From NCBI GenBank assembly GCA_903954165.1, contig CAJBMK010000088.1:1-41873 (forward strand): a DNA stretch of 41,873 bases, in the 5' to 3' direction. Below are positions 2,975 to 40,218 of this stretch, piece after piece. This DNA is from an uncultured bacterium (GTDB lineage: Bacteria > Patescibacteriota > Minisyncoccia > Phycocordibacterales > CAJBMK01). Position numbers and translations under genes: made by a program. The notes under the pieces are model-generated. The model was not told the origin of the DNA, made no database searches, and saw only the letters and a program-made list of their open reading frames with translations. Numbering within the stretch: the stretch's first letter is position 1; the number at the start of each line of letters is the position of its first letter.

Positions 2975-2976
2975 AA

Positions 2977-3010
2977 ACCAACCGTTTGGGTACTAATTAC
3001 CCGTAATGAC
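2977..3010. repeat. Right terminal inverted repeat of the IS
   Basis: accaaccgtttgggtactaattacccgtaatgac. It starts 3 nt after the transposase stop codon. Confidence 0.8.
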
Positions 3011-3121
3011 CGTGGGGGGGGTGGGAATTACAATAAAGCGGATTGGTCTACCGTCGGCTCAGTGCGGGAGAGTAATTTACTCGCGAGAATAAATAATTTA
3101 ATGCGAAAGTAAAATTCGAGT

Positions 3122-6529: not shown

Positions 6530-7300
6530 TTATTGATTTATGCGAAGAATTCGTTCGCTGTCGTGAATGTAAATTATTCCGTTGTCGATTCGAGCCCGCG
6601 GATTAATGCCTTTCCAAATCGGCTGAAAATTTTGAGTGTTTCGCTGGTCAGTGTCCAAGGCGTAGACTCCCGTATCGACGGAAAATATAATGCTGGAACC
6701 GCTATCGTCAAGGAAAGCAATGCTCGTGATTGGTTGCTGTCCGGTAAATATTGATGTCTCACTGCGTATCGTGTAAGAGCGAGATTGGTTTTCTTTGACG
6801 CTCATAATAGTGCCGTTGTCCGCAAATATAATAGTTGCTCCGTCGTCGGACACAAGCGGGGCGTCGCGTGTCGGCAAAGACGAAGAGGCAAGCCGGCGAA
6901 ATTCACTTTTCCATTCACTGCTCGAAGATGCAATTTCTGTTTCGTTGGCTATTATCGGAAAGTTAAACGGATATACATCAATACTCGTGTTTCCGGCGTT
7001 CGGTAAAAATGAAACGGTTTTCTGCCACGGGTAATGATTTTTTTGCATGACGGCAATGAGTCGGTCGCGTGACGCGCGGGCATACAAAGTAAAAAGTGTT
7101 TCGTGTGGTGATATTGTATGAATCGTATTATTTTCGTCGATAATAGTCGCTCCAACCGCCGACGTGTGGATTCGTATAGAATACGGAAAAAAAATGTCGT
7201 GAATTTTCGAGTAGCTTCCGCCGGTATATTTGACGACAATAAACGGAATTGCAATAGCGCAACATAGTATGAAAATAGTTACAATTTTTCGAATATTCAT
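6530..7300 (-). CDS. Hypothetical membrane-anchored protein
   Basis: The ATG at 7300 gives MNIRKIVTIFILCCAIAIPFIVV, an N-terminal TM or signal anchor. The stop lies 4 nt before the priA start, so the gene reads as the first gene of the hyp-priA-def-fmt operon. I recognise no family. Confidence 0.6.
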   Translation of the reverse strand: MNIRKIVTIFILCCAIAIPFIVVKYTGGSYSKIHDIFFPYSIRIHTSAVGATIIDENNTIHTISPHETLFTLYARASRDRLIAVMQKNHYPWQKTVSFLPNAGNTSIDVYPFNFPIIANETEIASSSSEWKSEFRRLASSSLPTRDAPLVSDDGATIIFADNGTIMSVKENQSRSYTIRSETSIFTGQQPITSIAFLDDSGSSIIFSVDTGVYALDTDQRNTQNFQPIWKGINPRARIDNGIIYIHDSERILRINQ

Positions 7301-7397
7301 GATGATTATATATGCTCGTATTTTCGCAAATTTTAGTCGGTAATACAATTGACATAAAGACGGATTACCTTTCAATTTGAGAATTAAACGGGGCGTG

Positions 7398-7425
7398 TTG
7401 AAATATTTTGCCAAAAGTATACAAT
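7398..7425 (+). promoter_or_regulatory. Sigma-70-like promoter for murA
   Basis: TTGAAA (7398-7403), 16-nt spacer, TACAAT (7420-7425). The murA ATG is at 7452. Confidence 0.5.
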
Positions 7426-7451
7426 ACGGAAACATTAATTTTTAACACATT

Positions 7452-12305: not shown

Positions 12306-13976
12306 ATGAAAAAAAATCCCGCAATTCGTGTTGAATTTTTGGTATCAGATATGAAACAAAAATATGCATATGTTGTTTTTTTCATAGTATTACTTACAGC
12401 CGTGCTGTTTTATTGGGGCTCAAGAATTCAATCAGTTTCGGCGTTACAAACGGAACAGGCAAAAATTTCCGGCTATGCGTGGTCCTCAAATATCGGCTGG
12501 ATTAGTATGAATTGTCCGACAATAAATTCGTGCACATACGGCGTTTCGTTTGATGTAAAGACCGGTCTTATGAACGGTTATGCCTGGTCTTCAAATATCG
12601 GTTGGATTTCGTTTACGGAAAGCGATTTGATGCAATGTCCCGTTTCGGAATGTAAGGCTGAATTCAAACTCGCAAACGGTACAATGAAAATGACCGGGTG
12701 GGCTCGCGCGTTGTCTCCAAATAAAAGCGGAAATTCCGGCTGGGACGGTTGGATACGGCTTGACGGGGCTACCTATGGCGTGACTGATAATGGCGGGGGA
12801 ATAATAGGCGGATATGCGTGGGGTAGCGACGTCATTGGCTGGATTGATTTTACCGGCGTAACATATAATCCTTCAGATATTCAAACGGGACTTTCGGTGT
12901 CTTTGACGGCAGACAGAGATACGTATATTTTGACTTCGGTGAACGATTCCTTTACGCCAGTGTTAACAGCCGGGATTAAAAATTATTATTCGGGGGAAAT
13001 ACTTTCGTATAGCTATACCTGTTTTGACGGTGACAGTATGCATCCCGTGGCTCCCGAGACCATTACAATTCCAAATACAATGATTGGAAGTGACGGAACG
13101 TTTGTGGTAAAAGAAAGTTTTGATTTAGAAGCTAAGAATGCGTGTTCGTACGCGACCGTTGGTGACAAAAAACCGACCGTGTATGTGTACGGTAACGCCG
13201 GCCGGAGCGGAAACGGTTCCGTAAATATGTATATTAATAGTTTTTCCTGTAACTCGGATAATAAAGTACTTGCCGAAACAAACGGTAATTCTAAAGCGAC
13301 GTGGTCCGTCCGGCCCGCTTCCGGAAAAGGCTCCCTTAGTAATATGCACTGGACGACAAGCGGTCTAAGTCCGGAAATTATTGGCAATACAGAGACGTTT
13401 AGTATTAATAATTCACAAATTAGCGTAGCCAACCCGAGTACTATTGAAGTACGAATGACGTCGGGAAATTATGTAAACACAGCGGGAAAAACGTTTGTGC
13501 TTCCGGAATTAAAATGTTCATCAGTAACGGTTGAAAAAGATTGTCATCTCAATTTTAATGACATAACGGCTCGACCGAAATTGAAAATTATCATAAAAAG
13601 TGCCGACTCCGAAACGGTGAATCTCGATTTCAATAGCGCGTCGGATATTTCGTGTTACAAGCACGGATGGTCCACGATAGCGTTTGACGAAAACGTTGCC
13701 TTGCCCGCCGGGACAGATTTGGGAAGCGCAAAAATTACGCTCGCCGTCAACAATGCTTCACCGGATAATAAAGGTATCTACCACATCAATAGCAGTAGTT
13801 TGTCATCCTCCAATGCAATTCCAGTCCATTTCCACATAGATTCTCCCGTAAAATCAGGCCAGTATACGGTGTACATAAAAGCTACTTTTGATCAAGGAAA
13901 AAAATTAGAAAGAACCTCACTCCTCCCCGTCATCATCCTCATCACAAACCTCAATCCCAATTTCATCGAACGATAA
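12306..13976 (+). CDS. Secreted/membrane-anchored repeat protein (GYAW..GWI repeats plus a C-terminal module shared with the giant protein)
   Basis: The ORF is open from 12258 (GTG). ATGs occur at 12306 and 12351. Hydrophobic anchor YAYVVFFIVLLTAVLFYWG. Four G(Y/W)AW-x-GWI(S/D)F-type repeats at 12471-12855. The C-terminal ~360 aa are homologous to the last ~360 aa of the 18704-30823 protein. Confidence 0.75.
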   Translation: MKKNPAIRVEFLVSDMKQKYAYVVFFIVLLTAVLFYWGSRIQSVSALQTEQAKISGYAWSSNIGWISMNCPTINSCTYGVSFDVKTGLMNGYAWSSNIGWISFTESDLMQCPVSECKAEFKLANGTMKMTGWARALSPNKSGNSGWDGWIRLDGATYGVTDNGGGIIGGYAWGSDVIGWIDFTGVTYNPSDIQTGLSVSLTADRDTYILTSVNDSFTPVLTAGIKNYYSGEILSYSYTCFDGDSMHPVAPETITIPNTMIGSDGTFVVKESFDLEAKNACSYATVGDKKPTVYVYGNAGRSGNGSVNMYINSFSCNSDNKVLAETNGNSKATWSVRPASGKGSLSNMHWTTSGLSPEIIGNTETFSINNSQISVANPSTIEVRMTSGNYVNTAGKTFVLPELKCSSVTVEKDCHLNFNDITARPKLKIIIKSADSETVNLDFNSASDISCYKHGWSTIAFDENVALPAGTDLGSAKITLAVNNASPDNKGIYHINSSSLSSSNAIPVHFHIDSPVKSGQYTVYIKATFDQGKKLERTSLLPVIILITNLNPNFIER

Positions 13977-14150
13977 GTTTTATAATTACCCCCCCGTTAT
14001 TTTATTTAAGAGATACGAGAGTAAATCTATATTTATTTCTCGGTCCGAAATAATTCGTGTTTACAGTCGCTTTTGGACGTGTTTCGATGTAATTTTCTGT
14101 GGATAAGATTTGCATATTTATCGGGTCGCGTGCGGTATAATTCAAGGTAA

Positions 14151-17100
14151 ATGAACGCGAAAAAAAACGCATGTTTTGTTTTAGGATATTTGGCTTTCCT
14201 GAATCAGAAATTTCGTATGAGGACGCGCGTTGTCCCTGTTCTCTTTTTTGGCGTCGGAATCGGTATACTATCGGCTGGTTTTTCATATGTAACTGCTGAA
14301 GCAAACGTCCCATCGTCTATTGTTTCCAAGGCGATAGCCGTCACATCTCCGGTTAATCTTGCTATTAATGCGGATTCAAAATCACGAACACGGGTTGAGG
14401 TGCTTGATGGTAGTCGTTGGGTTACGGTAAATTGGAGGGCTGAGGGATTTGAGCGCGGCGATACGTGTCTGGTAAATATTGCTTTTGCACCAACTTCAGT
14501 GGGAAGTCTCGATTCATCACATGTGTTTCAGAATATTAGTTATTTAAGCACTTTATTGGGTTCCACCGTAGGCACTAGCTGGGTAAAAGTTTCAAAAAAT
14601 ATTGTTCCCCAGAGTGTTACTATTTATCCGCGTATTTCTTGTGTTCATCAGGGTTTAACATACTCGGCAAATAAAGCTGTGTGCGTGGATTGTAATAGCA
14701 CATGGAAAGAAGAACCTGCAGTTCTTACGGTTGCTTCCAAAACATTCAAAAATGTTTTGTACGGACAGTCGGGGTATGAAGAAATTTACATAAAATATTC
14801 GGGTAATTTGAAAGCCGATAATGTAGTCGTGCGAGGATTAACGGAAGCCGGAAGCGGAATTACTAATGAAGGCGGTTCCAATATGCCCTGCGGAAGTTCA
14901 ATTTCGACCGACTGTGTTATTCGGGTGAAATTTACTCCGGAATTAGTTGCAAAGTCCGCATTGTCGAATTCCAATAATGTCGTTTCCGATCCTCGTTACG
15001 TTACGATAGATTATTTTAACGGCAAACAAAATATTTCCGTTCCTTTTTTGGTGACTACTATTTCAACGCCCAAAGCTACACTTGGTGTCAGTCCAAGTAG
15101 TCTTGATTTTGGTGTCGTAAATCAAAAAACAAGAGTTTCAAAGATTTTGAAGCTCAGTAATCAAGTCAAGGGAAGTCAGTTGACCGCCGTAACAATCCCC
15201 GACAGTATTAATTCACCATTCTCCATTAGCGAAAATTGTCCTGACACAATGTCCGCGGATAATTCATGTGATGTAAGTGTGGCGTTTGAACCGACTTCGG
15301 AACAAAAATATGTGAATTCACTTTCGGTCTCAGCGTCCGACGGCGTAACGACTCAAACACAATCAGTTCAGCTTCAGGGTGAATTACAATACCCAAAGAA
15401 TCCCGCGGTGCTATCGGTAGATACGGTTACGATGAGTGCGAAATCTTTTAAGGACACTGTGACAAAATCGGTTTTGATAAAATATAGCGGTGCGGAAAAT
15501 GCCACTATAGATTCCGTAACCGGACTCGGCAATGGCGTTTCTTTTGTCGGAGGCACATTTCCGGGCACCGGCGGAACATGCCAAAAAATAATCAGTGCCG
15601 ACTGTACGATTGTATTGAATTATTCTTTTTTAAATTCACAGAATTCGTCAGCTTTAGTGAAACCCGGTGGGAGTTCACCGGTGTCGTTTGTGATCGTTAT
15701 GAATTATGCAAACGGTGTATCTTCGGATGTTAAATCAACATCATTTTTGGTTAACACTTCCGTAATCGAGCCGAGGGGATTGTTGGCGACTAGTCTTTCC
15801 GATATAAATTTCGGCCAAATTTCGGGGTCGGCTTCAAAAATAATTACTGTCAGTAGTTCTGTTCCCGGTAGTCGACTTTCGAAAATAAAAGTATCTCCAC
15901 TCGAGAACCCGTTTAGTGTTAGCCAGGGGAGTGATTGTCGTGATGATGTAACTAATAGTCAGCGTTGTACTCTATATGTTATGTATAATCCTGAAGCCAA
16001 TACGACATCATCCGCATCATTCGCGATCACCACGTCAGACGGCGTGTCTCTACAAAGTAAGACCATTAATGTAATCGGTTCCGCCAAAGGGCTCATGAAT
16101 AGCCGAGGTCAGCAAATTGGTGCAACACCCGGCTCCGTGGTTTCAACTGATGTTGCTAAGGTGTCGATACCCCACGAACCGCCGGCTATTATTATTGAAG
16201 GCTCGACAGGGACTTCTGAAGTGTCTGTCGGTGATAATGGTACGGATCTGAATAATATTACTTTGCCGGATATAACTGAAGTGGCCACTGAAAAGAAAAT
16301 ATTTGAACTAAATGTGAAGCATGTAGGCATAAGTCCTGTAACCCTGACAAATATCTCAGAACTTAATATGAAAGAAGGTTTTCAATGGTTGGGAGGACAT
16401 TACCCCGGATTAGGGGGAACGTGTGGAAATGTTATATCAAGTAATTGCACTCTAATTCTTGAATTACTTCCTGATGCTAATCATGTTGTTGTTAACCATG
16501 CATTTAAATCACTGCATAATAAATCATTGCGAATGTTTTCTACTTATTTTGATTTTACATATGTTACTGATTCTCAAAAAAAGAAAACACGACTATTGGG
16601 CGTAAATCTCGATGTTTTTGCCCCAATGGTGGGTTCTATTAAGGTCGGAGAATACGCTCCGATATTTGGAGTATTAAAAGAAGGAGGAGAAAGTGTGACA
16701 AAGACGATATCTGTTGAAACAGATAGTGATATTAATGCATCCTTTATTACGGAGGGGGTAGAAAGTTCATCAAGAAATGTCATACCTATTTTAAAATCTA
16801 TTACACTTGAAGGATTGCAATCACCTTTTTCACATGCAGGTACGGATTGTAAAGAAGTTAAGAAGCCCTTTCCTAAAAAAATATGCGATGTAAAAATTAC
16901 CTATACTCCACCCGCTCTCGGTGAGTTGCGGTTTAAGAACGATATCGGTAATGTAATTCTTACCGCGACAAATGGTATTTCCTCGGTAAGTAGGGATTAT
17001 ATCTTAAATGCGACAACTATACCGAAAGAATTGTCCATAGATGTTTCAAAGGACGTTTTGATTGTTTATAATAAACTTTCTCCTGATAGTATTGAGGTCA

Positions 17101-18227
17101 AAGATTATTACATCAATCATCGTCCTGGCATGAATAAAGCGGCTGTAACTTCAATTAGTATTCAGGATCCATGTGCTGGTGTACCGGAAAAAACAACCAC
17201 ACTTCTTTACCCGAATCATGCCATTCACGATTATCAATCTGTTACCAAAGATGATTACTTAAGATTGATAAAAAATCCACTAACAACATACCTAAATAAT
17301 AATCCTACAATCAAGTATATAATCATGATGCCTGGGGTGCCGATGAGGTTTATTGGTGAGCCACATGGTGGATCTCGGTATGTATTTAGTATTCCAGATG
17401 ATCTTAGTAGTAATATCAGTGTAGGTAGTGCATATGAGCACAACTATAGCGGGCAGATCATCGACAGCATAGATAGTAATTATTTTGTACCTTCACTGTA
17501 TCCCGGAACAAGGGCTTTGATTACGTATGTCAATATGGTGGACAAAGATAAAACAATTGCATATATCGATAAATTAGAGCGAATGTATAAAGCGATGCCG
17601 GTTAAGTCTCTGATTATTTCTTCCAAAGATGTTTCGGGTTATGAAAAAGGCCTGTATTATGCTGACGGTTATACAAGTGATAAAATGTATCTTCATTCGA
17701 ATCTATTTGAACTGGGAGTAGAGCGTATGAAAAATTCTATTCCGGAGAGTCGTATTGTCCTTCATACAGATAGGGATAGTGTAAATGATTTAATTGGAAT
17801 CGATGGTTCGGCTCATCCCGCCATAGATGTAGCGGGATATTATGGGTGGGGAATCCATAACCTGGTTTATGGTGAAGAGTTTCCAATGTATACGCCTGAA
17901 AAACCTTTAAATCGAGTCAAGTTCTCAGGAAAGTCTGATTGGTACTTGATGATGACGGAAGAATCATTTAACGGAATTATCGGTGGTTCGGGCGGGCAGT
18001 CAACCTTTCGAACATGGTTTCATGAACTGGCTTTTGGGGGAACTAATTATTCCAATACTCCGGTTGCGGCTGTGGTTCATATTGATGAACCTGGAGGGGG
18101 ATCTACTAATTCGACTATTTTTGCGTGTTTCGATAAAGGTGAATTGCCTTTTGTTGAGTGTGCGTGGAAGTCTGTGACAAACTCAAATGCTACTGTGTTT
18201 ATCGGTGATCCGTTTATAACGCGGTAA
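14151..18227 (+). CDS. Large secreted protein: array of Ig-like (HYDIN/choice-of-anchor-D-like) domains plus a ~400-aa C-terminal globular domain
   Basis: 1,358-aa ORF. An alternative ATG at 14217 gives a textbook signal peptide (MRTRVVPVLFFGVGIGILSAGFSYVTAEA). Contains repeated ~100-aa units with a conserved ...C..VSV.F.P...... pattern, for example LDFGVVNQ...SISENCPDTMSADNSCDVSVAFEPTSEQ. The C-terminal domain starts at KDVLIVYNKLSPDSIEVKDYY and ends at FIGDPFITR. Confidence 0.8.
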   Translation: MNAKKNACFVLGYLAFLNQKFRMRTRVVPVLFFGVGIGILSAGFSYVTAEANVPSSIVSKAIAVTSPVNLAINADSKSRTRVEVLDGSRWVTVNWRAEGFERGDTCLVNIAFAPTSVGSLDSSHVFQNISYLSTLLGSTVGTSWVKVSKNIVPQSVTIYPRISCVHQGLTYSANKAVCVDCNSTWKEEPAVLTVASKTFKNVLYGQSGYEEIYIKYSGNLKADNVVVRGLTEAGSGITNEGGSNMPCGSSISTDCVIRVKFTPELVAKSALSNSNNVVSDPRYVTIDYFNGKQNISVPFLVTTISTPKATLGVSPSSLDFGVVNQKTRVSKILKLSNQVKGSQLTAVTIPDSINSPFSISENCPDTMSADNSCDVSVAFEPTSEQKYVNSLSVSASDGVTTQTQSVQLQGELQYPKNPAVLSVDTVTMSAKSFKDTVTKSVLIKYSGAENATIDSVTGLGNGVSFVGGTFPGTGGTCQKIISADCTIVLNYSFLNSQNSSALVKPGGSSPVSFVIVMNYANGVSSDVKSTSFLVNTSVIEPRGLLATSLSDINFGQISGSASKIITVSSSVPGSRLSKIKVSPLENPFSVSQGSDCRDDVTNSQRCTLYVMYNPEANTTSSASFAITTSDGVSLQSKTINVIGSAKGLMNSRGQQIGATPGSVVSTDVAKVSIPHEPPAIIIEGSTGTSEVSVGDNGTDLNNITLPDITEVATEKKIFELNVKHVGISPVTLTNISELNMKEGFQWLGGHYPGLGGTCGNVISSNCTLILELLPDANHVVVNHAFKSLHNKSLRMFSTYFDFTYVTDSQKKKTRLLGVNLDVFAPMVGSIKVGEYAPIFGVLKEGGESVTKTISVETDSDINASFITEGVESSSRNVIPILKSITLEGLQSPFSHAGTDCKEVKKPFPKKICDVKITYTPPALGELRFKNDIGNVILTATNGISSVSRDYILNATTIPKELSIDVSKDVLIVYNKLSPDSIEVKDYYINHRPGMNKAAVTSISIQDPCAGVPEKTTTLLYPNHAIHDYQSVTKDDYLRLIKNPLTTYLNNNPTIKYIIMMPGVPMRFIGEPHGGSRYVFSIPDDLSSNISVGSAYEHNYSGQIIDSIDSNYFVPSLYPGTRALITYVNMVDKDKTIAYIDKLERMYKAMPVKSLIISSKDVSGYEKGLYYADGYTSDKMYLHSNLFELGVERMKNSIPESRIVLHTDRDSVNDLIGIDGSAHPAIDVAGYYGWGIHNLVYGEEFPMYTPEKPLNRVKFSGKSDWYLMMTEESFNGIIGGSGGQSTFRTWFHELAFGGTNYSNTPVAAVVHIDEPGGGSTNSTIFACFDKGELPFVECAWKSVTNSNATVFIGDPFITR

Positions 18228-18281
18228 TGAGTGAAGGTCGACGAATATAAATAGTAGTTACAACAGGTTAATAAAGAACAT

Positions 18282-18647
18282 ATGCACAAAAAAATAAAAA
18301 AAATATACTTCTCGATATTGATACTATTAGTACTGGTATGTGTGGGATACTATTTGTATCAAATAAATTCCGGTAGTGGCTTAATTTCTGTACATAAAGA
18401 AACGACGATTAATTCTGATGCTTTGGCTCGTATGGTAGATTTGCAGGATAAACTATTTAAGAATGAACGAGAAATCTCCAGTTCAACCATAGACGCGATG
18501 AACGCTTTAAAAAAACAGTCGGCTGATTTGAAAAAAGTCGATATGGAGGAGCAAAAAAAGAGAAGTGCGTATGAGGCTGCGGTAAATAAAAGCAATATTC
18601 GTGAGATGACTATTCCGGGCGGGCGCTATGATTTTAGTCCGAACTAG
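18282..18647 (+). CDS. Small single-pass membrane protein with a coiled-coil-like tail
   Basis: 121 aa. N-terminal TM IYFSILILLVLVCVGYYLY followed by a charged helical region. Tightly spaced between the two large genes (gaps of 54 and 56 nt). Confidence 0.55.
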   Translation: MHKKIKKIYFSILILLVLVCVGYYLYQINSGSGLISVHKETTINSDALARMVDLQDKLFKNEREISSSTIDAMNALKKQSADLKKVDMEEQKKRSAYEAAVNKSNIREMTIPGGRYDFSPN

Positions 18648-18703
18648 TAGATTGCGTTGGTGAGTGCGTCCTGCTAATAATAAATTTGTCATTAATAAAT
18701 TCA

Positions 18704-21700: not shown

Positions 21701-24700
21701 GAATCAATTGTTCGATATTCGATTGTGGGAACATGTGATTCGGGTAAAATTACCTATGTTTATTCGTACATGGTGCCGGGCGGGAAGTCGGTAGCGTATA
21801 AGACTGAAGTACGCAGTATATTTACCGGAGTGCTTATCTCAACCCCGACGAATGATGAATTATTCCAAACAAAAAGTGCGGAAGCGAGATATTTTAAACC
21901 GAGCGGATTACTATCGTGGGCTCTAAATGAAGCCGATACTGTTTTTGCCGTTACAAAATTAATACTTTCAAAGTATATTGCGGACGTGAAAGCGGAAGCC
22001 GATAGTAACAAAAAATTATCGCTGTACTATGATTATGCGGATGAGCTATCTTGGGCGGTGAAGTCGGTTACCAATCATTTTCATTCAAATTCGACAGTAA
22101 AAAATAATGACAGAACATTCGAGGAATCGGCTTTGCCGTGGGTTGTGCCAGCCGGTCAAAGCATTACAAATAAACAAATATACGGTTTCTATATAAAATT
22201 GGGAGGTATCGAGTCGAATGCATCAAACGCACGTCTTGCATTTATTGATATGGACCCGGCAAATGTAGCAGAGCTTCAGGCTAAATTAGCGGCTGCCACG
22301 TCGTATGCGGATCTGGAAAAGTGGCCGAAACAGATGGGGAAATTTGATTCTCTCGGCAATACCGACGGTAGCGGTTTAATCGTCGGAACGGATAATAATT
22401 GGAAAATATTTTCCGCAAAAAATTCAACCGACCGTACGACTCGTTTGACGGTAGAAGAATTAACTCGCCCGGATCCCGCCACGAATAGAATCGTAGAATC
22501 GTTTATGCAGAGTTCGAGCGGTTTGTTATTGAAGATTAAAAAAAGCGCAAATAAATTGACGCCGGATGAGGTGATTAAAATATTCTATTCATATTTTTAC
22601 GACCAGTATTATTTTACCTATGAACATGATTTGGCCGGTGTTGCTCAAACGCTGGCGCAAACTATGTCGCGTCCGGGCGGAAATTGCCAGGAGTTCGCCG
22701 TAACGGCTGCGACTTTGCTTCGCTCTATATTTGTGAGTCTCGGTATGCCGGAAGAGGCGAAAAATGTCGGTCTTGCGACGGTAACAGTTACCGTCAGCCC
22801 GACGAGTGATACGGCGACGCTTGGCCACATCGGTGTTGTGTATAAGAATACAAACGATAGTTTAACCTATATTGAATCTATATATCTTTTCCAGGGAATG
22901 GGCGCCACAGTCCCTCTTGAAACGTATCCTGAAATTACTATTGAAAAAAATAGATTGTCGAAATTATTATCACCAAACAAAAATATCGACGGCTGGAAAG
23001 TGAATATGTCGTCGTATAGTTTGGTTGGCACGTTGCCTGTTGGCTCCGAAAACAGTTCTTCGGTCGGTAATTCTATATATCCAATTAATGATGTTGCCTC
23101 GTATATTGAACCGCATGATCCGAAAATTGAAGCGCTTGTTTCGGTCATGTATCCGTTTATTCCGAGATTATTTGAACAGTCAAAGGAAGGTCTGGCGGAA
23201 TATGTCCATTCCGTTTTGACCCCGTATTTTTCCTACGATTCTTCAGAACCGGACGGTAAGCCGTGGGAAAAAGTTGCGCAAATTTTGGACGGAGTTGTCG
23301 GAACGGACGGTACTGTTGCTCCGGGGTCTATAAAGGGGGATTGTGATGAATTGGCTTTTGTTGAAGCGAGCGTGTTGCAGAATTTACTGGAAGGACGATA
23401 CATAATGAGAAATTTGGCTCCAGCTAAGGCAAAATTGGCCGCCTCGGAAGATGTTATGCTTTTTGCTATAAGAAAGGATGCAAATTCAGCCGTTGCACAC
23501 ATGTTTCCCGGAGTTGTGACCTATATGAATAATAACGCGCTGACTCGCGTTCTACCGCTTGATCCGCAAATTTCCGCTCCTCAATCGACGATCGATTTTC
23601 GGACAATGATGGATGAGAATATGCTCTTTTATGCCAATAAAGCTTTCGGTACTGTTGCAGTTAGTAGTGACGATTTATCCGCGACGGTCTTCAAAAGTAA
23701 AGTTGACGCTCCGGCCGGCGATGAGCCCGCACCGAGTGAAAAGGTGGTACCAAAATCGTATTTTGATGGAGACGGAAAAGAGATTTCAGCGGAACAGGCT
23801 GCGGAGCTTCAGGTTGAGTTGGCGCGGGTGGAAGCAGAGTCGGCAAGAATTGATCAAGTAGATGCTCTTATTGCTGCGACGGGAAAGAAACTTGCTGATT
23901 TTTTGGCGAAAAATACCGAGCTTCAATCGAAGATTGTGGAAAAATTAGACGCCGGAACAAATACAGCCGTAACTCCCGCCGTTACCAATACGAATGTTCC
24001 GATAATCGATAATAATAATGCGGGAAATTTGGGTACATTTGGCGCCACGAAGACAGATTCTGCTGTTCCCGGGTCAATTAATACACCGGGCAATTTTGGT
24101 ACTTTTGGTGCCGAGCCAAGTGCTCCCGCAGCCGCCGGAAATGGCCCTTCGAATTTTAGCTATACTTTTGGTGCTACACAGCCCGAACTAACACAGCCTA
24201 CTTTGGTTCAAAATATGTTTACGGCACCGGGAGGCGGACCTGCTCCTTCGGTGTTTACAAACGTATTAAACTTTATTGGGGGATTATTTTCCGGCGGTCC
24301 GGGAATAAATTATTCAATGTATGGTTCGGGAGGAAATACTTTTAGTCCTTCAGGAATTGTAACAACATTTGGCAATAATCCGAATTTAAATATAACGGCG
24401 ACGCCAAACGTACTATATATACCTCTGGCTATGCCGGACTCCGCATCTATGTGTCCAACCGGAGTGACGGTTTCAAAAATGTGTTCGGATGTATCGGGAA
24501 ATGTAATTACCACGAAGCCGGATAATTCGTTTTTTGTGGGGAAAGACAGTTGTGCTTCGGTAGCCGGTTCTTGTTCTGACGACAAATTATTTTATACCGG
24601 CTGGGTCTGTAACCTTGGTTTTACAATGTCGCTCGACAAAAAATCCTGCGTACCGAATAATAAACCGCCTTTGACGCCGGTTATTACTTCGATGCCGGCG

Positions 24701-27700
24701 AACACTAATTTTTCAAAGACTGCCCAAACGTATACGTTTGTTTCGACCGACCCCGACAAAGACAATTTGTATTATCAAATTAAATGGAATGGAGATTCAA
24801 AACTCGAAATACAGCCGTTAACGGGAAGTATTGCTTCCGGTATCGCTGTGTTGTCGAGCCAAACCTGGCCAACCGACGGAGCATTTACTATCGAGGCTCG
24901 CGCTATTGATACAAGCGGAGCGATATCCCCGTGGGGTAAGCTCGTTGTAAATATTTCGAACAATTCGGCGCCACTTGCACCTGTAATCACATCGGCGTCT
25001 TCAAATACGAATAATCCGCTCCATTCGGAAACCTATTTGTTCAAAAGCACTGATCCTGACGGCGATAATCTGTTTTACGAAATACAGTGGTCTGGAAAAT
25101 CGGATGATGTATACGGTATCGTTCGTGTTCCCGCAGGAAATGCATTCGTCGCACACAACACAAATCAAAGCGCGAACAACACATGGCCGAAAGTTGGCAC
25201 GTATACGTTCATTGTCCGTGCGGTTGATGTTCACGGATCGAAATCCCCGTGGACCGCATATTCGCCTGAAATAACTCCGCCCGGTTTTGATTTTTCATTG
25301 CGCGGTCCGGATCTTATCACAATTATCCAAGGTAATTCCGCAGACGCAACAATCGTAAAAAATGTGGTTGAAGGTGATGCAAGCGAGGTTGTCCTTACGG
25401 CAAGCATAAATAAAATATCCGGATCGCCGGATTTGACTGTGACGCTTCCGCACAAGACCGACTGCACGCCGACATGTAATGAAGTAGTTCAAATTTCTTC
25501 GGATAATTTTGTCGGTGTGAATATAGCTAAAGTCACGTATTACACACTTACGGTTGTTGGTACGGCAAAAAACGATTCTCTCATAAAACACACTATATCT
25601 ATACCGGTGCGATTTGTTCCGGCGCCACGTGTTGTGCTTACCGCAAGTCCAAATCCTGTTTTGGATACCGCGATAGGAGATTTGGAAAGTTATCAATCGA
25701 CATTAATGTGGACATCAACCGGCGCAAAGTCATGCTCCGCAAAATCTGATCCTGTCGGGGTCTGGGCTGGAGTGAAAAAGTTGTCCGGGAGTGAAACTAT
25801 TACGATGGATAAGTATACGTTGTTTACCATTACGTGTACCGGTGAAGGTGGTAAGGCTGATGCTATTGTTGACGCGGATGTAATACATTCGAAAGCGCTT
25901 TCGGTCCTTCTTACCGCAAATCCATCCGCAGGACGATTGGTAGACGGTTCGTTTGAAACCATGCTGACTGCGTCATTAAAAAACCAAACCGGAGACGTTA
26001 AATATCGCTTCAATTGCGAGGGCGGTCCCGAATTAAAATCGCAAAGATTAATTACCGCACTGGTTAGCGACGATTCGTTTACGTTCAAGTGTAATTACAG
26101 CTTTTCGGGTATTCATCAGCCGACGGTGTTTGTGTATGACGATAATAATCCAACCATTCCTGTCGTGGCTTCGAATTTGGTATTTACGGACGGGCTCGAG
26201 GTGGTATTGGAAGCCGTACCAAACAAAGGTGCGATTCCGTTTACGCCTCTTTTACAGGTAAAATTTCAGAATTATAATTCACCGGTAAAATATCACATCA
26301 ACTGCAACGGAAGTACTCTGCCGGCGAATGAGAATGGCGTAAATGCAATTTCAACAGCGGTAAATTCGACAACGGACGGCGAGTACAGCTTCTTTAATGT
26401 AACCGATTGTACCTACGATACGGTGGGTCAAAAAACTCCGACAGTATTTGTCTATGACGATAATAATACGAGACTTCCGGTTATTGCTTCAACAAAAGTT
26501 ACCGCGATTGTACCTCCGCCGGTTGTAGGTTTCGATTTTTCTCTTTCCGGTCCAAAAGAAATTGTTTTGACCCAGGGAGCGACAACAGAAGTTGAAATAT
26601 CAAAGGATTTGGTTCAAGGTGTCGGCGGAAATGTCCATCTTGCACTTTCGGTTGCGCCGATTGCGGGAGGACCGAATGTGACGGCCACCCTTATAAATTC
26701 GACCGATTGTACGCCAACATGCGCGGAAACCGTCCGATTGTCCGCGGATAATTCTTTGGGAAATAATGTGACTGATATCAAGAAGTATTCGCTTACCGTC
26801 GTCGGAACCGCAAAAAATGACAGTACAAATACCCATACGTTAATTATTCCGATACGATTGGTGCCGGCACCGCGGGTAACATTAACGGCGTCACCAAATC
26901 CGGTAGCGGAAACGGCTGTTTCTCCTCTCGCCCCCTACGAAACGGTTTTGGAATGGTCTTCTATATCGGCGACTTCCTGTACGGCGTCATCAGATCAGCC
27001 GGGACTTTGGACGGGCGACAAAAAAATATCAGGCAAAGAAAAAGTGGCACTATCAAAAAATACGAAGTTTAGTATTGTATGTGTCGGCGACGGAGGAGAG
27101 GCAAACGCATCGGTTTCGGTTGTAAAGCTTGGCGCCAAATTATCCGTTACTTTGAAGGCAAATCCCGCTACGGGCGCTTTGTCGAATAATCGATTTGTTA
27201 CGACATTGACCGCCGTATTAAAAAATGAAGATGGCGCCGTCACATATTCTTCCAATTGTAACGGTGATAGTGAGTTATTGCCGGTGACAATAAAATCCGC
27301 CACGCTTATTGACCACGCATTTACGTTTACTTGTACGTATGTAAATTCCGGAATTTTCCTTCCGACCGTATTCGTCTATGACGATTCAAACGTCACTGTT
27401 CCGGTCAAAGATTCCGCGCACGTCTTTGTGTATGATCAGATGACACTTTCTTTGACGGCTAACCCCGACGCAGGAACTGTTCCGTTTACATCTGAAATGA
27501 AAGTGGATTTAGGCAATTATGTTGCACCCGTTTCATACACGTATAATTGTAATAACGGTTTGGCACCGACGATTCCTGTACGTCCGGCAACTATGATCGC
27601 GTCGAATGTTTCAAGTGCGAACGTCTCACAAAACACCGGTTCGTTTACATTCTCATGTACGTATGTAAAAATCGGTTTGAATAATCCGACAGTCTTCGTC

Positions 27701-30700
27701 TACGATGCCTTTAATACCGACAATCCATTGATCGCAACAACAAAAATCACTGTTGTCGCCGCCGATACAAATCGTCCGCCGTCGAAACCAATAATCGACG
27801 GCCCGAGCAGTGGATTAATTAACAGTGCACTCAAGTACAACGTTGTTTCGACCGATCCGGATGGCGACCAAATCTATTACGAAGTGACGTACAAAATAAA
27901 TACTTCCGCCGAAACGAATCCGATTTCTCGTTTGCCGTTTTTAGGGTTGGTGGAGTCGGGTACAATTCAAAATCAGGATTATGCATGGACCGGTCAGGGA
28001 TACTTCATTGTGTTAGCTCGAGCGATTGACATCAAAGGCGCGACGTCTGACTGGGGTTCGTACAACGTAAACATTAAGCAAAACGAGCCTGAGCCGGAGT
28101 TTGAATGGTATGGAACCGATGTGTACGAAAATTCAAGCGGTTCGTTGCCTTCAGATTTTGTGAATCATTATCATCTTATTCGATACGACGGGCCGACAAA
28201 AATAACATCATACTTCCCGGATGAGGCCGGAGTAGCCGGTACGGTGGGCGTAAAAACGTTGGTTGCCAAAACTAAAATTGATATTCTCACTGAAATCGGC
28301 GACAGTAAAACCGCTTACGGCGGAGACCCGATGGTCAATACAAAAACCGGCAATTACGTCTTCTCGCATGGAAACATCAAACAGTGTACGGACAAAGCTT
28401 TCACAAATTGTACGCTAATAAACGACAGCGATGTTGGTTCACCGCTTCCTCCAAAAGGTATGGGTAAATATGAGGCGAAATATGGCAAATATATTTTGTC
28501 TACCTTAACATTCTCAAAATTATTTGAATGGTATGGCGATAGTATTTCTGGCGAGCCGGGAGTTTTGCCGACCGACTTTAGGAATAAGTATTTCATTTTG
28601 AGAAATACCCTTAATCCGATGACCGCCACGTATTACCCAAGCGAGGAAGGTGTGGAGGGTTTGCCGGCGACGAAAACATTTATTGCTTATACAAACAAAG
28701 ATTTATTGACCGACACCGATACCGCCAATACCGCATTCTATGCGAAAAATTCCGTACAAACAGGAAACGGAGGATATTATTTTTCACACGGCAGAATAGT
28801 CCAATGCGACGATCCGCAATTTACCGTTAATTGCAATATTGTGAATGACGGAGATGTCGGGCAGGAATCTGGCGGTACAAAAAAGTATAATCCAAACGGC
28901 GGTCAATATATTCTCGGTACTCATACATACCGTCTTGGAACGGCTCCCGTAAATCATCCTCCGACAGCGCCAATAATTACCGGCCCGAATAAAGGTTCGG
29001 TGAATGATAGTTTGTTTTTCAATAGCGTTTCGACCGACCCTGATGGCGACCAAATCTTTTACAATGTAACGTATCAGCTCGATCCTTATATTGAAATAAA
29101 CGTTATTTCAAGACTGCCGTCCGAGGGTTTAGTAAATTCAGGAACAAGCCAAAATCAGGGTTATCGTTGGACAGGTCCCGGAGCTTTCATCGTAAAGGCT
29201 CAAGCTATCGACAGCAAAGGCGCCACATCCGAGTGGAGTGAATACAGTGTAAATATTTCACAACAGATCGAATCGCGATTTAATTGGTACGGAAAGAGTA
29301 TTTCGGCGAACGGTAATGGTCTACCAGAAGGTTTTGTGAACTATTACCATCTAATCAGAAAAGATAAAACCTCAGATACAGTAACCTATTATCCGAGTTC
29401 GGCAGGTGTAACGGGTGTTTCGGGTAAAGCTGGAGTTACAACATTTATTGCATCTACAAACGCCGATATTTTGGTTGATAATTATCCGTACGAAACAGGC
29501 TTTGGTGCCGAGCATACTATTTCTGTGGGACCCTATACATATGTTTTTTCACACGGCAACATAATCCAATGCGACAACCTGCAATTTACCGATAGTTGCA
29601 ATACTGTGAATGACGGAGATTTCGGGCAGGAATCCGGTGGCACAAAGAAGTATAATCCAAACGGTGGCCATTACATTCTCAGCACAAATACGTACAAATT
29701 ACAGCCAGGTAATAGTGATGGATCTAATACAACACTTCCGGTCACTTTGTCGGCAACTCCAGATCACGGTTCTCTTGAAAATTCTTCATTTACTACAACG
29801 CTAACCGCACATCTAACTTCGGGGGAATATTCACTTCCAGTCGCATACCAATATAAGTGTTCTGATAGTGAAGGTTGGAAACCAGATGCCGAAATTTCAA
29901 CATCTGTGAATGCAAGTAATGGTTTTGAAATCAAGAAATCAGACGGTAGTCCCGCATGTTCTTATCCTAGCGGAGGAACTTATACACCTAGTGTTAAGGT
30001 GTACGATAGCTCTAATCCATATAGGGTAGGAACTGCAACGACAAACGTATATGTTGCAGAGTTTATTTGTAACGTTAATGGAAGTGTAACTGAAGCTGTT
30101 GCTGGTAATGCCGGGGGTGCTACATGGGGAGTAAACAATCCTTTTAATGGTGGCGTATTTACAAAGATGGTTTGGAATATTTCAAATCTAGATTCATTGA
30201 ATGGGGCACCTTTGGTAAGTATAAATACGGAAGGTTCGTATTATATCCCGAATCAGAATATAAGTTGGTTGAATATGAATAATACAATTAACAATATTTT
30301 GGTTTCACTTCAATCAGGTGCGTATACATATATTGGTAAAACATTCAACATTCCTGCTATTTCTTGTCCGAGTGCGTCATTGGTGAAAAATTGTACACCG
30401 AATTTTGCTCTCGTGTTCAAGCCATTGGAAACAAAAATGAAAATAGTTATAAGTAGTGCTGATTCAGATCCTGTCGATATTCAATTGAAAAATCAAGCTA
30501 CTTGCATAGATACTGCATCGGAGGTAACTATTACTGAAGTATATATTGATGATGATAATACGGTCCGTAGGTTAAAAAGTGCGGGTGCGACAATTTCACT
30601 TAAACAAAAAGCGGATCGTGAATTGTATACATTAAATATTAGTGATCTAAACGCAACGGAATCTATTCGGTTTACAATTGATAATCCTGTTGTATCCGGT

Positions 30701-30823
30701 GATTACATTGTTAAAGTTAAGGCAATACTGCCTAGTCAAGGCAATTCTAGCCCGGTGGAAGTTACTTCTGAACCAATAACTATCCACATCACCAATCTCA
30801 ATCCGTCATTCAAAGAGCAATAA
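18704..30823 (+). CDS. Giant (~4,040 aa) multidomain secreted surface protein
   Basis: Uninterrupted 12.1-kb ORF, open from the TTG at 18686. The ATG at 18704 gives signal peptide MSSINKIVKIIVYTLAVLLCILTQSSVLYA/QT. Recognisable internal domains are two LamG-like domains, YD-like repeats, two transglutaminase-like cores, four DPDGD Ig-like domains and multiple Ig-like repeats. Confidence 0.88.
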   Translation: MSSINKIVKIIVYTLAVLLCILTQSSVLYAQTSNSGTLEFLAGFDGDFRDYSHNTSRPMTVGNLVNPIFDGPTQSDGWLPKFGSGTMKLTGGTGGSDSSGISFVPQNNNSQGEISLGTGEFTIDFWFYPYGLKHNGLEFWKEYNSNPTKSTLSKPHNLFYAIQNQVNSLFLLDTIKLARFNGGYKFIVFQNNSSFEVSSNLSSDIVENQWNHIAIQRVNSKDGSSFVVSINGKAGTVVNKALDFSLPKINRLYFGQPQVMNPLGDIDEFRIIKDKALWPGAAAGQAYIIPTTSAITQDVLNSAPAYDVSFLKIKPENISSSFLLHFDTNLLDVSGKEPVMSSGVVPVVSVGQKQVGTGSASFNSTSGTVTYDTGVALSATDDFTIDFWAYPRGFQKDINKSLVLLKLSDGTTNYFLRTHIYSTFLNTQLQFGPLSSVVDPTWYNSMLSEGTSQSSDSLYRIMLKEKTWNHIVIQRYKGELLYIINGAASRNAYFMNNVNSRFALTPFSGKSLSLSMGGVIPITGTQAIAGEVPVAFDGYIDEVRITKGALWPNVQKDDQVAYVPSVVGDTVKSSNLAIFDRSVEAFMAADTNVIPGNIAWFEQAFSAVSGTSVESNQSETVPARTITSEQLFSRTNGAPFYTEYYDSGDKLVASAIWAGSGVTSGDKKIKYSEYFEDSGLYQETFYSPNGAVTDIYRYYSKADGGRLFTQIENRNGLERYRRYSADGDEQYSHEYRNGAFVYAKRKAVSLDGITQNVVCFSADCLNFERKIISSNSTVVYSVTGTAYKFTITDYKGGKILFQKESAGTIGNNGSVVPSYRKVTTYSSNGATPSTEIVINFLGSPQNTAVLKTYSTDSLSVSYGKIDKEEMWLVDSSFNPTGQRMYKMSYTYNSDGVLVSKLKEEKTQLDFTTTTYRPDDSVKKLKKIAGTIYSDGSFGTVTEYSFDRNNKEVARVVTALKKGWVIEKIDRYTLTVLASRTTFDTDGSCPIRGDYFEKGNESIVRYSIVGTCDSGKITYVYSYMVPGGKSVAYKTEVRSIFTGVLISTPTNDELFQTKSAEARYFKPSGLLSWALNEADTVFAVTKLILSKYIADVKAEADSNKKLSLYYDYADELSWAVKSVTNHFHSNSTVKNNDRTFEESALPWVVPAGQSITNKQIYGFYIKLGGIESNASNARLAFIDMDPANVAELQAKLAAATSYADLEKWPKQMGKFDSLGNTDGSGLIVGTDNNWKIFSAKNSTDRTTRLTVEELTRPDPATNRIVESFMQSSSGLLLKIKKSANKLTPDEVIKIFYSYFYDQYYFTYEHDLAGVAQTLAQTMSRPGGNCQEFAVTAATLLRSIFVSLGMPEEAKNVGLATVTVTVSPTSDTATLGHIGVVYKNTNDSLTYIESIYLFQGMGATVPLETYPEITIEKNRLSKLLSPNKNIDGWKVNMSSYSLVGTLPVGSENSSSVGNSIYPINDVASYIEPHDPKIEALVSVMYPFIPRLFEQSKEGLAEYVHSVLTPYFSYDSSEPDGKPWEKVAQILDGVVGTDGTVAPGSIKGDCDELAFVEASVLQNLLEGRYIMRNLAPAKAKLAASEDVMLFAIRKDANSAVAHMFPGVVTYMNNNALTRVLPLDPQISAPQSTIDFRTMMDENMLFYANKAFGTVAVSSDDLSATVFKSKVDAPAGDEPAPSEKVVPKSYFDGDGKEISAEQAAELQVELARVEAESARIDQVDALIAATGKKLADFLAKNTELQSKIVEKLDAGTNTAVTPAVTNTNVPIIDNNNAGNLGTFGATKTDSAVPGSINTPGNFGTFGAEPSAPAAAGNGPSNFSYTFGATQPELTQPTLVQNMFTAPGGGPAPSVFTNVLNFIGGLFSGGPGINYSMYGSGGNTFSPSGIVTTFGNNPNLNITATPNVLYIPLAMPDSASMCPTGVTVSKMCSDVSGNVITTKPDNSFFVGKDSCASVAGSCSDDKLFYTGWVCNLGFTMSLDKKSCVPNNKPPLTPVITSMPANTNFSKTAQTYTFVSTDPDKDNLYYQIKWNGDSKLEIQPLTGSIASGIAVLSSQTWPTDGAFTIEARAIDTSGAISPWGKLVVNISNNSAPLAPVITSASSNTNNPLHSETYLFKSTDPDGDNLFYEIQWSGKSDDVYGIVRVPAGNAFVAHNTNQSANNTWPKVGTYTFIVRAVDVHGSKSPWTAYSPEITPPGFDFSLRGPDLITIIQGNSADATIVKNVVEGDASEVVLTASINKISGSPDLTVTLPHKTDCTPTCNEVVQISSDNFVGVNIAKVTYYTLTVVGTAKNDSLIKHTISIPVRFVPAPRVVLTASPNPVLDTAIGDLESYQSTLMWTSTGAKSCSAKSDPVGVWAGVKKLSGSETITMDKYTLFTITCTGEGGKADAIVDADVIHSKALSVLLTANPSAGRLVDGSFETMLTASLKNQTGDVKYRFNCEGGPELKSQRLITALVSDDSFTFKCNYSFSGIHQPTVFVYDDNNPTIPVVASNLVFTDGLEVVLEAVPNKGAIPFTPLLQVKFQNYNSPVKYHINCNGSTLPANENGVNAISTAVNSTTDGEYSFFNVTDCTYDTVGQKTPTVFVYDDNNTRLPVIASTKVTAIVPPPVVGFDFSLSGPKEIVLTQGATTEVEISKDLVQGVGGNVHLALSVAPIAGGPNVTATLINSTDCTPTCAETVRLSADNSLGNNVTDIKKYSLTVVGTAKNDSTNTHTLIIPIRLVPAPRVTLTASPNPVAETAVSPLAPYETVLEWSSISATSCTASSDQPGLWTGDKKISGKEKVALSKNTKFSIVCVGDGGEANASVSVVKLGAKLSVTLKANPATGALSNNRFVTTLTAVLKNEDGAVTYSSNCNGDSELLPVTIKSATLIDHAFTFTCTYVNSGIFLPTVFVYDDSNVTVPVKDSAHVFVYDQMTLSLTANPDAGTVPFTSEMKVDLGNYVAPVSYTYNCNNGLAPTIPVRPATMIASNVSSANVSQNTGSFTFSCTYVKIGLNNPTVFVYDAFNTDNPLIATTKITVVAADTNRPPSKPIIDGPSSGLINSALKYNVVSTDPDGDQIYYEVTYKINTSAETNPISRLPFLGLVESGTIQNQDYAWTGQGYFIVLARAIDIKGATSDWGSYNVNIKQNEPEPEFEWYGTDVYENSSGSLPSDFVNHYHLIRYDGPTKITSYFPDEAGVAGTVGVKTLVAKTKIDILTEIGDSKTAYGGDPMVNTKTGNYVFSHGNIKQCTDKAFTNCTLINDSDVGSPLPPKGMGKYEAKYGKYILSTLTFSKLFEWYGDSISGEPGVLPTDFRNKYFILRNTLNPMTATYYPSEEGVEGLPATKTFIAYTNKDLLTDTDTANTAFYAKNSVQTGNGGYYFSHGRIVQCDDPQFTVNCNIVNDGDVGQESGGTKKYNPNGGQYILGTHTYRLGTAPVNHPPTAPIITGPNKGSVNDSLFFNSVSTDPDGDQIFYNVTYQLDPYIEINVISRLPSEGLVNSGTSQNQGYRWTGPGAFIVKAQAIDSKGATSEWSEYSVNISQQIESRFNWYGKSISANGNGLPEGFVNYYHLIRKDKTSDTVTYYPSSAGVTGVSGKAGVTTFIASTNADILVDNYPYETGFGAEHTISVGPYTYVFSHGNIIQCDNLQFTDSCNTVNDGDFGQESGGTKKYNPNGGHYILSTNTYKLQPGNSDGSNTTLPVTLSATPDHGSLENSSFTTTLTAHLTSGEYSLPVAYQYKCSDSEGWKPDAEISTSVNASNGFEIKKSDGSPACSYPSGGTYTPSVKVYDSSNPYRVGTATTNVYVAEFICNVNGSVTEAVAGNAGGATWGVNNPFNGGVFTKMVWNISNLDSLNGAPLVSINTEGSYYIPNQNISWLNMNNTINNILVSLQSGAYTYIGKTFNIPAISCPSASLVKNCTPNFALVFKPLETKMKIVISSADSDPVDIQLKNQATCIDTASEVTITEVYIDDDNTVRRLKSAGATISLKQKADRELYTLNISDLNATESIRFTIDNPVVSGDYIVKVKAILPSQGNSSPVEVTSEPITIHITNLNPSFKEQ
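25277..27765 (+). repeat. Tandem duplication of a ~1.25-kb (~415-aa) coding block inside the giant gene
   Basis: Block A (25277-26510) and block B (26511-27765) are colinear. Both begin GFDFSL(R/S)GP, and both contain TDCTPTC, TVVGTAKNDS, LVPAPRV.LTASPNPV and two units ending PTVFVYDD.N. Confidence 0.85.
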
Positions 30824-40217: not shown

Positions 40218-40218
40218 C

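Follow-up and report, generated by a model that had tools for sequence, protein, structure and literature searches.

A candidate surface locus encoding a giant LamG and predicted cysteine-enzyme protein with a small membrane partner, inserted between uvrB and uvrA of a Patescibacteria bacterium

Very large surface proteins containing concanavalin and immunoglobulin-like (Ig) domains have been proposed to act as host-interaction factors in Patescibacteria (PMC13059738) and DPANN archaea (PMC10266531). The contig CAJBMK010000088.1 from an uncultured bacterium, analysed here over its full 41.9 kb (41,873 nucleotides; hereafter the window), contains a same-strand cluster of four consecutive plus-strand open reading frames (ORFs), g1 to g4, at positions 12306-30823, the last of which encodes a giant of this general type. 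An earlier note on this DNA had proposed the cluster as an undescribed system. This description holds for the protein family and its motifs, but not for the kind of system, as giant lectin/Ig surface proteins are an already recognised theme (PMC13059738, PMC10266531). The locus is best seen as a new form of that theme, the giant adhesins of episymbionts, and does not represent a new type of machine. The features that fall outside Pfam, NCBIfam and the searched literature are the double cysteine-enzyme head predicted in g4, its partner g3, and the g1-type beta module with its phylum-wide C-terminal motif. The conserved core of the locus is the g3+g4 pair, and the four-gene unit is not conserved.

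The closest described proteins are the Absconditicoccaceae giants (PMC13059738) and the nanohaloarchaeal LamG/PKD and "SPEARE" proteins (PMC10266531). Like these, g4 exceeds 1,500 aa, is encoded in a tiny genome, carries a Sec signal and combines lectin (concanavalin/LamG) domains with PKD and Ig arrays; the proteins compared are also alike in being strain-specific, in clustering with surface-protein genes and in their proposed role in host recognition or holding. In contrast to these giants, g4 contains neither a VirB4/TraG-like ATPase nor a C-terminal transmembrane (TM) anchor, and has two cysteine-peptidase-fold domains, a small membrane partner and a PxFxEx-COOH end. No sequence relationship between the two sets was found.

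A second comparison is with the Lap system of Pseudomonas, in which the giant adhesin LapA is controlled by the BTLCP protease LapG together with the receptor LapD (PMC3032545, PMC4359373). Both couple a giant, repeat-rich adhesin to a transglutaminase-like cysteine proteinase, and LapG is the best structural and profile match of the g4 cores. In g4, however, two protease-like domains are built into the giant itself, and the window lacks RTX repeats, type I secretion (ABC/MFP/OMP) genes, LapD and a cyclic di-GMP module. As is general for the phylum, the bacterium is expected to lack an outer membrane.

The remaining comparisons are more distant. The LPXTG/MSCRAMM wall-anchored adhesins of Gram-positive bacteria share the order of signal peptide, N-terminal ligand-binding head, Ig-like stalk and short C-terminal signal, but g1 to g4 lack LPXTG, a C-terminal hydrophobic segment and a charged tail. 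The PxFxEx motif forms the very end of the protein; therefore, sortase-type processing is not expected. Like g4, RHS/YD-repeat and teneurin-like polymorphic toxins are large and secreted, have YD-like beta-hairpin motifs and are encoded next to a small gene. The YD-like region of g4 is, however, only ~540 aa long, gives no RHS_repeat match at E<=1 and is not followed by a C-terminal toxin tip. Finally, g2 resembles choice-of-anchor D/ASH-type Ig proteins through NF012200, a generic domain, and the rest of g2 is without relatives. No named secretion, adhesin, phage or defence family was matched, in keeping with the statement in the earlier note that no named secretion or adhesin system could be recognised.

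The giant, its predicted enzymatic head and its small partner

The cluster spans 18.5 kb, or 44% of the window, and consists of the following genes.

12306..13976, plus strand: g1, 556 aa counted from ATG (the ORF opens at GTG 12258)
14151..18227, plus strand: g2, 1,358 aa, a predicted secreted Ig-array protein, orphan
18282..18647, plus strand: g3, a predicted bitopic membrane protein of 121 aa with a TM helix, a coiled coil and a conserved tail (..IPGGRYDFSPN)
18704..30823, plus strand: g4, the predicted secreted giant, 4,039 aa counted from ATG (the ORF opens at TTG 18686)

The intergenic gaps are 174 nt between g1 and g2 (240 nt if g2 begins at Met23), 54 nt between g2 and g3, and 56 nt between g3 and g4. 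Hydropathy analysis reveals a single hydrophobic segment in each protein, N-terminal in all, showing that all four products are predicted to be exported or membrane-anchored. The coordinates, small gaps, share of the window and N-terminal signal peptides or TM segments given in the earlier note were all borne out by this reading, with the length of the giant now fixed at 4,039 aa.

A scan of the whole g4 protein against Pfam returned no match, and the layout below was derived from piecewise scans, internal hidden Markov models (HMMs) and family alignments.

aa 1-30, plus strand: signal peptide (hydropathy)
19043..20353, plus strand: two predicted LamG / concanavalin-A-like lectin domains (aa 114-273 and 365-550; Pfam, paralogy, homologues)
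20543..22153, plus strand: conserved beta-rich region with YD-like motifs (aa ~614-1150; family alignment)
22571..22933, plus strand: core 1, predicted cysteine-peptidase / transglutaminase fold (aa ~1290-1410; Cys1328, His1375, Glu1391)
23258..23605, plus strand: core 2, predicted cysteine-peptidase / transglutaminase fold (aa ~1519-1634; Cys1547, His1599, Asp1620)
23621..24673, plus strand: A/G/T/P low-complexity linker with TFGA/FG repeats, then a Cys-rich knot (aa 1640-1990; composition, sequence)
24650..29695, plus strand: stalk made up of PKD1-2, eight Ig-like units (a four-unit block duplicated), PKD3, U1-U2, PKD4 and U3 (aa 1983-3664; internal HMM iteration)
29711..30820, plus strand: C-terminal module common with g1 (aa 3670-4039, three domains), ending NLNPSFKEQ (terminal motif 30794-30820)

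In the family alignment of g4 the Cys of core 1 is invariant and its His nearly so. The core 2 motif GDCEDLAFVEASVLQN is conserved; seven family members retain both the Cys and the His of this core and five have lost both, which is the pattern expected of a real catalytic pair. Transglut_core (Pfam PF01841) scores 17.9 bits (E 0.004) and 12 bits in g4, below the cut-off of 23, and the family profile aligns with LapG (4u65_E) exactly on the catalytic-Cys motif at E 0.27. An AlphaFold model of aa 1180-1680 was built from a 14-sequence alignment and is of medium confidence (predicted local distance difference test, pLDDT, 73), with core 2 reaching pLDDT 80-95. The top Protein Data Bank (PDB) match of this model in Foldseek is again LapG 4u65_E (E 2.7e-3, probability 1.0), followed by 3isr (a putative cysteine protease), phytochelatin synthase and vasohibin, all papain/transglutaminase-fold cysteine enzymes. 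The modelling thus shows the cores as two predicted LapG-like papain/transglutaminase-fold domains with intact triads, and both domains are probably active.

The signal peptide shows g4 to be exported via a predicted Sec signal. The two LamG domains are paralogous to each other and score 27.2 and 27.9 bits with Laminin_G_3 (PF13385) against a cut-off of 27.6; at the orthologous positions in homologues the scores are 40-60 bits, and the g4-family profile also matches the LamG-like module of PDB 5hon. The beta-rich region has the family consensus YDxxGxxxxR/E. RHS_repeat gave no match at E<=1 in g4 (aa 600-1350) and none at E<=1e-3 in the homologues, and no other Pfam model matched the region. 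The linker occupies aa 1640-1880 and the knot aa 1880-1990, the latter being 38-48% identical to its counterparts in L089, L093, L095 and the separate stalk protein of L100 (locus labels as listed below). The internal repeats comprise four PKD-like units, eight Ig-like units in a tandem-duplicated block of four and one further Ig unit in the C-terminal module; through divergence, the domain repeats are now 25-56% identical in amino-acid sequence. A solved PKD domain, PDB 4xed_A, is matched by the PKD unit at E 6e-12, and Pfam PKD scores 18.2 bits, below its cut-off. Each of the three copies of the U domain is ~137 aa long, and this orphan domain has no Pfam or PDB relative and none in any locus compared. 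PDB 4kh8 was considered as a relative of the U domain and dropped, as the single-sequence match (E 5e-4) was lost with the three-copy profile. The stalk, with ~13 Ig/PKD units plus three orphan domains, is shown to be lineage-specific. Of the domains that the earlier note had listed for g4, the lectins, both Cys-His cores, the linker, the Cys knot, the 13 or more Ig/PKD units and the triple orphan domain are upheld, and the YD repeats are unconfirmed by any profile.

A word-indexed database search with g4 aa 560-1960 gave no match, and relatives surfaced only through an exhaustive HMMER search with aa 560-1759 as the query. This search found 14 representatives (phmmer E 5e-88 to 1e-11). They are secreted, 1.1-2.6 kaa long, and have the N-terminus, LamG domains and central region in common with g4. 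The first ~2,000 aa of g4 are the defining head of a rare, uncurated Patescibacteria family of giants (P0129-P0140). The plan of this family is found in g4: a signal peptide, LamG, a conserved region of ~1,000 aa with two Cys-His cores, a linker and a Cys knot. One representative is annotated as a "LamG domain-containing protein" of Candidatus Taylorbacteria; its alignment with g4 covers 1,681 aa at 29% identity (E 8e-140), and its knot is 41% identical.

The genomic context was read for nine distinct giant loci, the window included, which are arranged as follows.

Window: Ig-array protein (g2), small TM protein (g3), giant (g4)
L089: Ig-array protein, small TM protein, giant
L090/L094, L096, L092/L095, L099 and L093/L097: small TM gene directly 3' of the giant
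L100 (4617-11426): giant encoded in two parts, a head of 1,382 aa and a second protein of 750 aa, with a g3-like gene in between
L091 (8837-25868): giant P0133 between pilM and pilN/pilO; no g3 homologue retrieved

A g3-like small TM gene is thus found beside the giant in eight of the nine loci (the window, L089, L090/94, L092/95, L093/97, L096, L099 and L100). The earlier note had treated all four genes as one system, which the comparison does not support: only g3 and g4 recur together, and g2 has no relatives beyond generic Ig domains. In L100, the head contains LamG plus the cysteine-enzyme cores and the 750-aa protein contains the linker, Cys knot, Ig units and terminal motif; therefore, head and stalk are separable modules. 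Upstream of the Candidatus Taylorbacteria giant, L089 also encodes dockerin- and cohesin-type secreted proteins (794-4096), which represent a different surface-assembly theme. Also within the pilus operon of L091 are an insertion sequence (IS) with HTH and DDE_3 genes and the gene for a Cys-rich protein whose C-terminus reads NPQFREI.

A jackhmmer search seeded with one of the small genes recovers only the small neighbours of giants, g3 included, among 6,799 ORFs, and g3 matches the neighbour gene of L096 by blastp at E 2e-8. Common to the aligned family members are a TM helix with a conserved Glu a short way beyond it, a coiled coil and, after the coiled coil, a C-terminal tail of the form [IL]P-x3-4-F-[NSD]-P-[NR] (IPGGRYDFSPN in g3, LPDGRFDFNPN in L096). 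Pfam scans of the g3 family returned only TM and coiled-coil noise.

The g1 family, its C-terminal motif and g2

The first gene of the cluster belongs to a far larger family than the giant, and its product is divided as follows.

12357..12431, plus strand: N-terminal TM helix (aa 18-42; hydropathy, with an AlphaFold helix at 13-38)
12438..12875, plus strand: Trp-rich all-beta "GYAWS" module (aa ~45-190; alignment, AlphaFold)
12867..13973, plus strand: C-terminal module common with g4 (aa 188-556), ending NLNPNFIER (blastp, alignment)

The Patescibacteria "GYAWSxNIGWISF" family has 1,899 matches at E<=1e-3, all of them from Patescibacteria where the source is named, and these matches span only the N-terminal 23-50% of g1. 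The module is ~150 aa long and consists of four G[YW]AWSxNIGWI-type repeats after an N-terminal TM or signal segment, with invariant Trp and Gly columns in an alignment of 102 sequences. AlphaFold predicts an all-beta structure, and pLDDT exceeds 90 for most of the module. The module is covered by neither Pfam nor NCBIfam, Foldseek found nothing better than E 0.1 in the PDB or BFVD, and a literature search for the repeat motif returned nothing. In the family plan, the GYAWS module is followed by variable Ig-type domains (PKD, CARDB, Big_2, Big_9, TSP1, LVIVD) and then by an extreme C-terminal motif.

At four loci (L084 7250-8374; L086 9362-9925; L087 9310-9966; L088 9147-9983) a g1-type gene is directly preceded by one whose product has a TM segment and then an "AWTxPxxxPP" N-terminal motif; a Peptidase_S74 tail-fibre chaperone domain is present in one of the four products. 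In the window, g1 is not preceded by a gene of this type.

The giant lacks the N-terminal GYAWS module and shares with g1 the C-terminal module, which is 33% identical over 390 aa by blastp (E 2e-37) and 37% identical in a MAFFT alignment. The earlier note had described a C-terminal module of ~360 aa that links the two genes, and the module is real. The other giant loci have no g1-type genes. The shared module is absent from the JGI metagenome contigs searched, and its last two domains have no relative in any locus compared. As in the window, the local g1-type protein of L084 and of L088 has its C-terminal domain and motif in common with secreted neighbours in which the N-terminal module is missing.

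The strict end motif P-x-[FYW]-x-E-x closes 56 of the 120 best g1 relatives, and some others end in an LPxWxE[IV]xPF variant. Among ORFs of the loci compared, the strict form P.[FYW].E.-COOH occurs in 15 of 910 from Patescibacteria and in none of 2,345 from loci of other phyla, a comparison open to ascertainment bias, as some of the loci were chosen for holding family members. In the g3-associated loci, giants with a complete C-terminus are closed by the motif, sometimes in a looser form. The ends of the giants and of the separate stalk protein are listed here.

L093: PSYNEF
P0130 and L096: GVFEEF
P0131: PVFEEI
P0133: PRVQEL
P0135: PKFREISH
L100 stalk protein: PRYEEF

The more distant representatives P0136-P0140 have different C-terminal ends. 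The motif is also found on neighbouring Ig-array proteins in L089 and L093 and on one protein of the L091 pilus operon.

In g2, a choice-of-anchor-D/ASH Ig domain is recognised at aa 301-397 (NF012200, 60 bits against a cut-off of 45), and the protein contains internal Ig-pair repeats. Database searches matched only copies of g2 and generic choice-of-anchor-D proteins, with no whole-protein relative. Its C-terminal domain is set out below.

16968..18224, plus strand: g2 C-terminal domain of ~420 aa (aa 940-1358), no Pfam or PDB match

The one match of this domain, weak and partial, is to the uncharacterised family TIGR03790 and lies below threshold (14.5 bits, E 0.018, cut-off 67, covering 38 of 316 model positions), and a literature search on TIGR03790 found nothing.

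Insertion into a repair operon and integrity of the 12-kb ORF

The nearest UvrB proteins among species-representative genomes come from Parcubacteria/Patescibacteria metagenome-assembled genomes (62-70% identity), and all named relatives of g1 and g4 are from Patescibacteria. By these sequence relationships the bacterium carrying the cluster is placed as a Patescibacteria (Parcubacteria/Paceibacteria-type) bacterium, the type of organism that had been supposed. In the closest genomes (L002, L006, L041) uvrB directly abuts uvrA-uvrC, and other relatives have 0.7-3.3 kb of unrelated small cargo between uvrB and uvrA. None of the uvrB-uvrA loci of the relatives compared contains homologues of g1 to g4. 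It follows that the 18.5-kb block was inserted, together with nudix and in this lineage specifically, into a repair operon that is otherwise conserved. The position of the cluster between uvrB and nudix-uvrA-uvrC had been given correctly, and the synteny comparison that the earlier note had suggested finds uvrB directly beside uvrA in relatives. The base composition of the block is unremarkable. A phage, defence or mobile-element origin was rejected, as there were no PHROGs or PADLOC matches and no relatives on viral contigs. Elsewhere in Patescibacteria, g1-type and other orphan secreted genes lie inside housekeeping operons, between fusA and tuf and between secY/adk and map (L084 3300-9600, L087 8300-11400, L088 4300-13400), in parallel to the uvrB-uvrA insertion in the window.

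The possibility that the 12-kb ORF of g4 is an assembly chimera was raised in the earlier note and is dispelled by independent data. The 38-kb European Nucleotide Archive (ENA) contig L001 contains the cluster genes at 99.7-100% amino-acid identity and again gives a g4 of 4,039 aa, a third sample contains the 5' part of the cluster, and the cluster has no DNA-level tandem repeats. The g4 ORF is therefore not a chimera. The window and L001 differ at 24 positions in 24 kb, 19 of which fall within a single tract.

19540..19646, plus strand: strain-variable tract of 107 bp in the inter-LamG linker of g4 (aa 279-315)

An example is QAYIIPTTS in the window and QTFSVPTES in L001. No template copy of the tract occurs within the window. 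Diversification by a diversity-generating retroelement was rejected, as the window has no template repeat and the scanned window proteins have no reverse-transcriptase domain. The tract looks like strain-level recombination or a hypervariable patch.

Scans for promoters and terminators in the cluster gave site numbers not above those of shuffled sequence, and Rfam and tRNA scans gave no match inside it. Upstream of the cluster are genes for a Pif1 helicase and a Mutator-transposase fragment, followed by fmt, def, priA, murA, mreB and uvrB; downstream are nudix, uvrA, uvrC, ddl, a nucleotidyltransferase gene, DUF2339 and DUF3999. The 262-aa ORF at 2186-2974, which is ~480 nt away from the Pif1-type helicase gene (55-1704, minus strand), matches only positions 203-298 of the 379 in the Mutator-family transposase profile and is probably what is left of a degraded IS. 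A 301-aa ORF on the minus strand between priA and murA (6530-7435) is without a Pfam match. At 38301-41547, a DUF2339 membrane protein gene is followed by a DUF3999 ORF that overlaps it by ~100 nt. Two tRNA-Ala genes are present in the window, at 37074 and 41596.

Proposed role and alternative explanations

The locus is proposed to encode a surface lectin/peptidase adhesin with a membrane partner that is used for host contact, a reading given about as much credence as doubt. In the proposed mechanism, g4 would be held at the cell surface via g3, via the C-terminal module and motif that it has in common with the membrane-anchored g1, or via both. Retention through partners is suggested because g4 has no membrane anchor of its own. 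The stalk would project the lectin and peptidase head outward toward a partner or host cell, where the head may bind glycans and may cleave or cross-link envelope proteins or peptides of the partner cell. On this proposal g2 would be an additional Ig-array surface protein particular to this lineage, for which no link to g1, g3 or g4 is demonstrated. Several points weigh against this adhesin proposal. That g3 and the C-terminal motif act as anchors is purely our inference, and the episymbiotic lifestyle of the organism is assumed from its phylum. For the peptidase assignment the sequence scores are weak (Pfam E 0.004, PDB profile E 0.27) and the model, built from only 14 sequences, is of medium confidence; the present data do not separate peptidase from transglutaminase chemistry in the g4 cores. 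A four-part apparatus is, moreover, unsupported by co-occurrence, because g1-type genes are not adjacent to giants at other loci and g2 is an orphan with no relative at any compared locus. A more specific and unlikely variant is that the PxFxEx-COOH motif is a Patescibacteria-specific, non-sortase signal for surface retention or assembly, for example by docking into the Trp-rich beta domain of membrane-anchored g1-type proteins; g1 would then tether or co-assemble with g4, and g3 would be a dedicated membrane receptor or regulator of the giant's head.

Other explanations account for parts of the same evidence. The tight adjacency of giant and small gene in eight of nine loci, on either side, together with the YD-like motifs and two cysteine-peptidase-fold cores, could reflect an effector-immunity pair, in which g4 is a contact-dependent antagonistic effector that damages the target envelope and the membrane-anchored g3 is the cognate immunity or pseudo-substrate protein, shielding the producer. 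A toxin gene plus a small neighbour is the layout typical of polymorphic toxin systems. The peptidase cores are, however, internal and conserved instead of forming variable C-terminal toxin tips, g4 matches neither RHS_repeat nor a toxin family, and g3 is mostly a TM helix, a coiled coil and a short conserved tail rather than a globular inhibitor. It is also kept where core 2 is inactivated, and an effector-immunity function is considered decidedly improbable. It is likewise unlikely, though somewhat easier to credit, that there is no multi-protein system at all and that the uvrB-uvrA interval is a permissive, well-expressed site which collects fast-evolving surface genes, with g1, g2 and g3+g4 acting independently as separate adhesins or components of the cell's own envelope. 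The unrelated small cargo held in this interval by relatives, the g1-type genes inside fusA-tuf and secY-adk-map operons, the orphan status of g2 and the absence of g1 beside giants elsewhere all fit such a site; the 370-aa module common to g1 and g4, the recurrence of this module-sharing pattern in L084 and L088, and the conserved pairing of g3 with g4 do not.

Cultured Saccharibacteria attach to their hosts by means of type IV pili (PMC9894109, PMC12206443), and the giant might accordingly be a pilus-associated adhesin with g3 as a small membrane component resembling those of the alignment complex. The homologue P0133 lies between pilM and pilN/pilO in an operon that also has a small TM gene and a motif-bearing protein, and L099 has a PilB-type ATPase gene 3 kb away. 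Yet the 41.9-kb window contains no pilus gene, seven of the nine giant loci have none nearby, and the search for g3 homologues did not retrieve the small TM protein of the L091 pilus operon. Because surface genes of this kind are inserted in conserved operons of many sorts, the pilus operon may be one more landing site; a pilus accessory role is highly improbable.

The proposed surface adhesin bears on a question of general interest. Beyond the type IV pili of a few cultured Saccharibacteria, how ultrasmall episymbionts recognise, hold and exploit their hosts is largely unknown, and this locus gives handles on the problem. The g1-type family, with at least 1,900 members and a beta domain without structural relatives, may together with the C-terminal motif serve as a marker of the Patescibacteria surface proteome. 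Should the motif prove to be a signal for sorting or assembly, proteins of the surface could become predictable across thousands of uncultured genomes. If it does retain g4 at the surface, the locus would represent a previously unrecognised route for the display of large adhesin-enzymes in wall-bearing ultrasmall bacteria.

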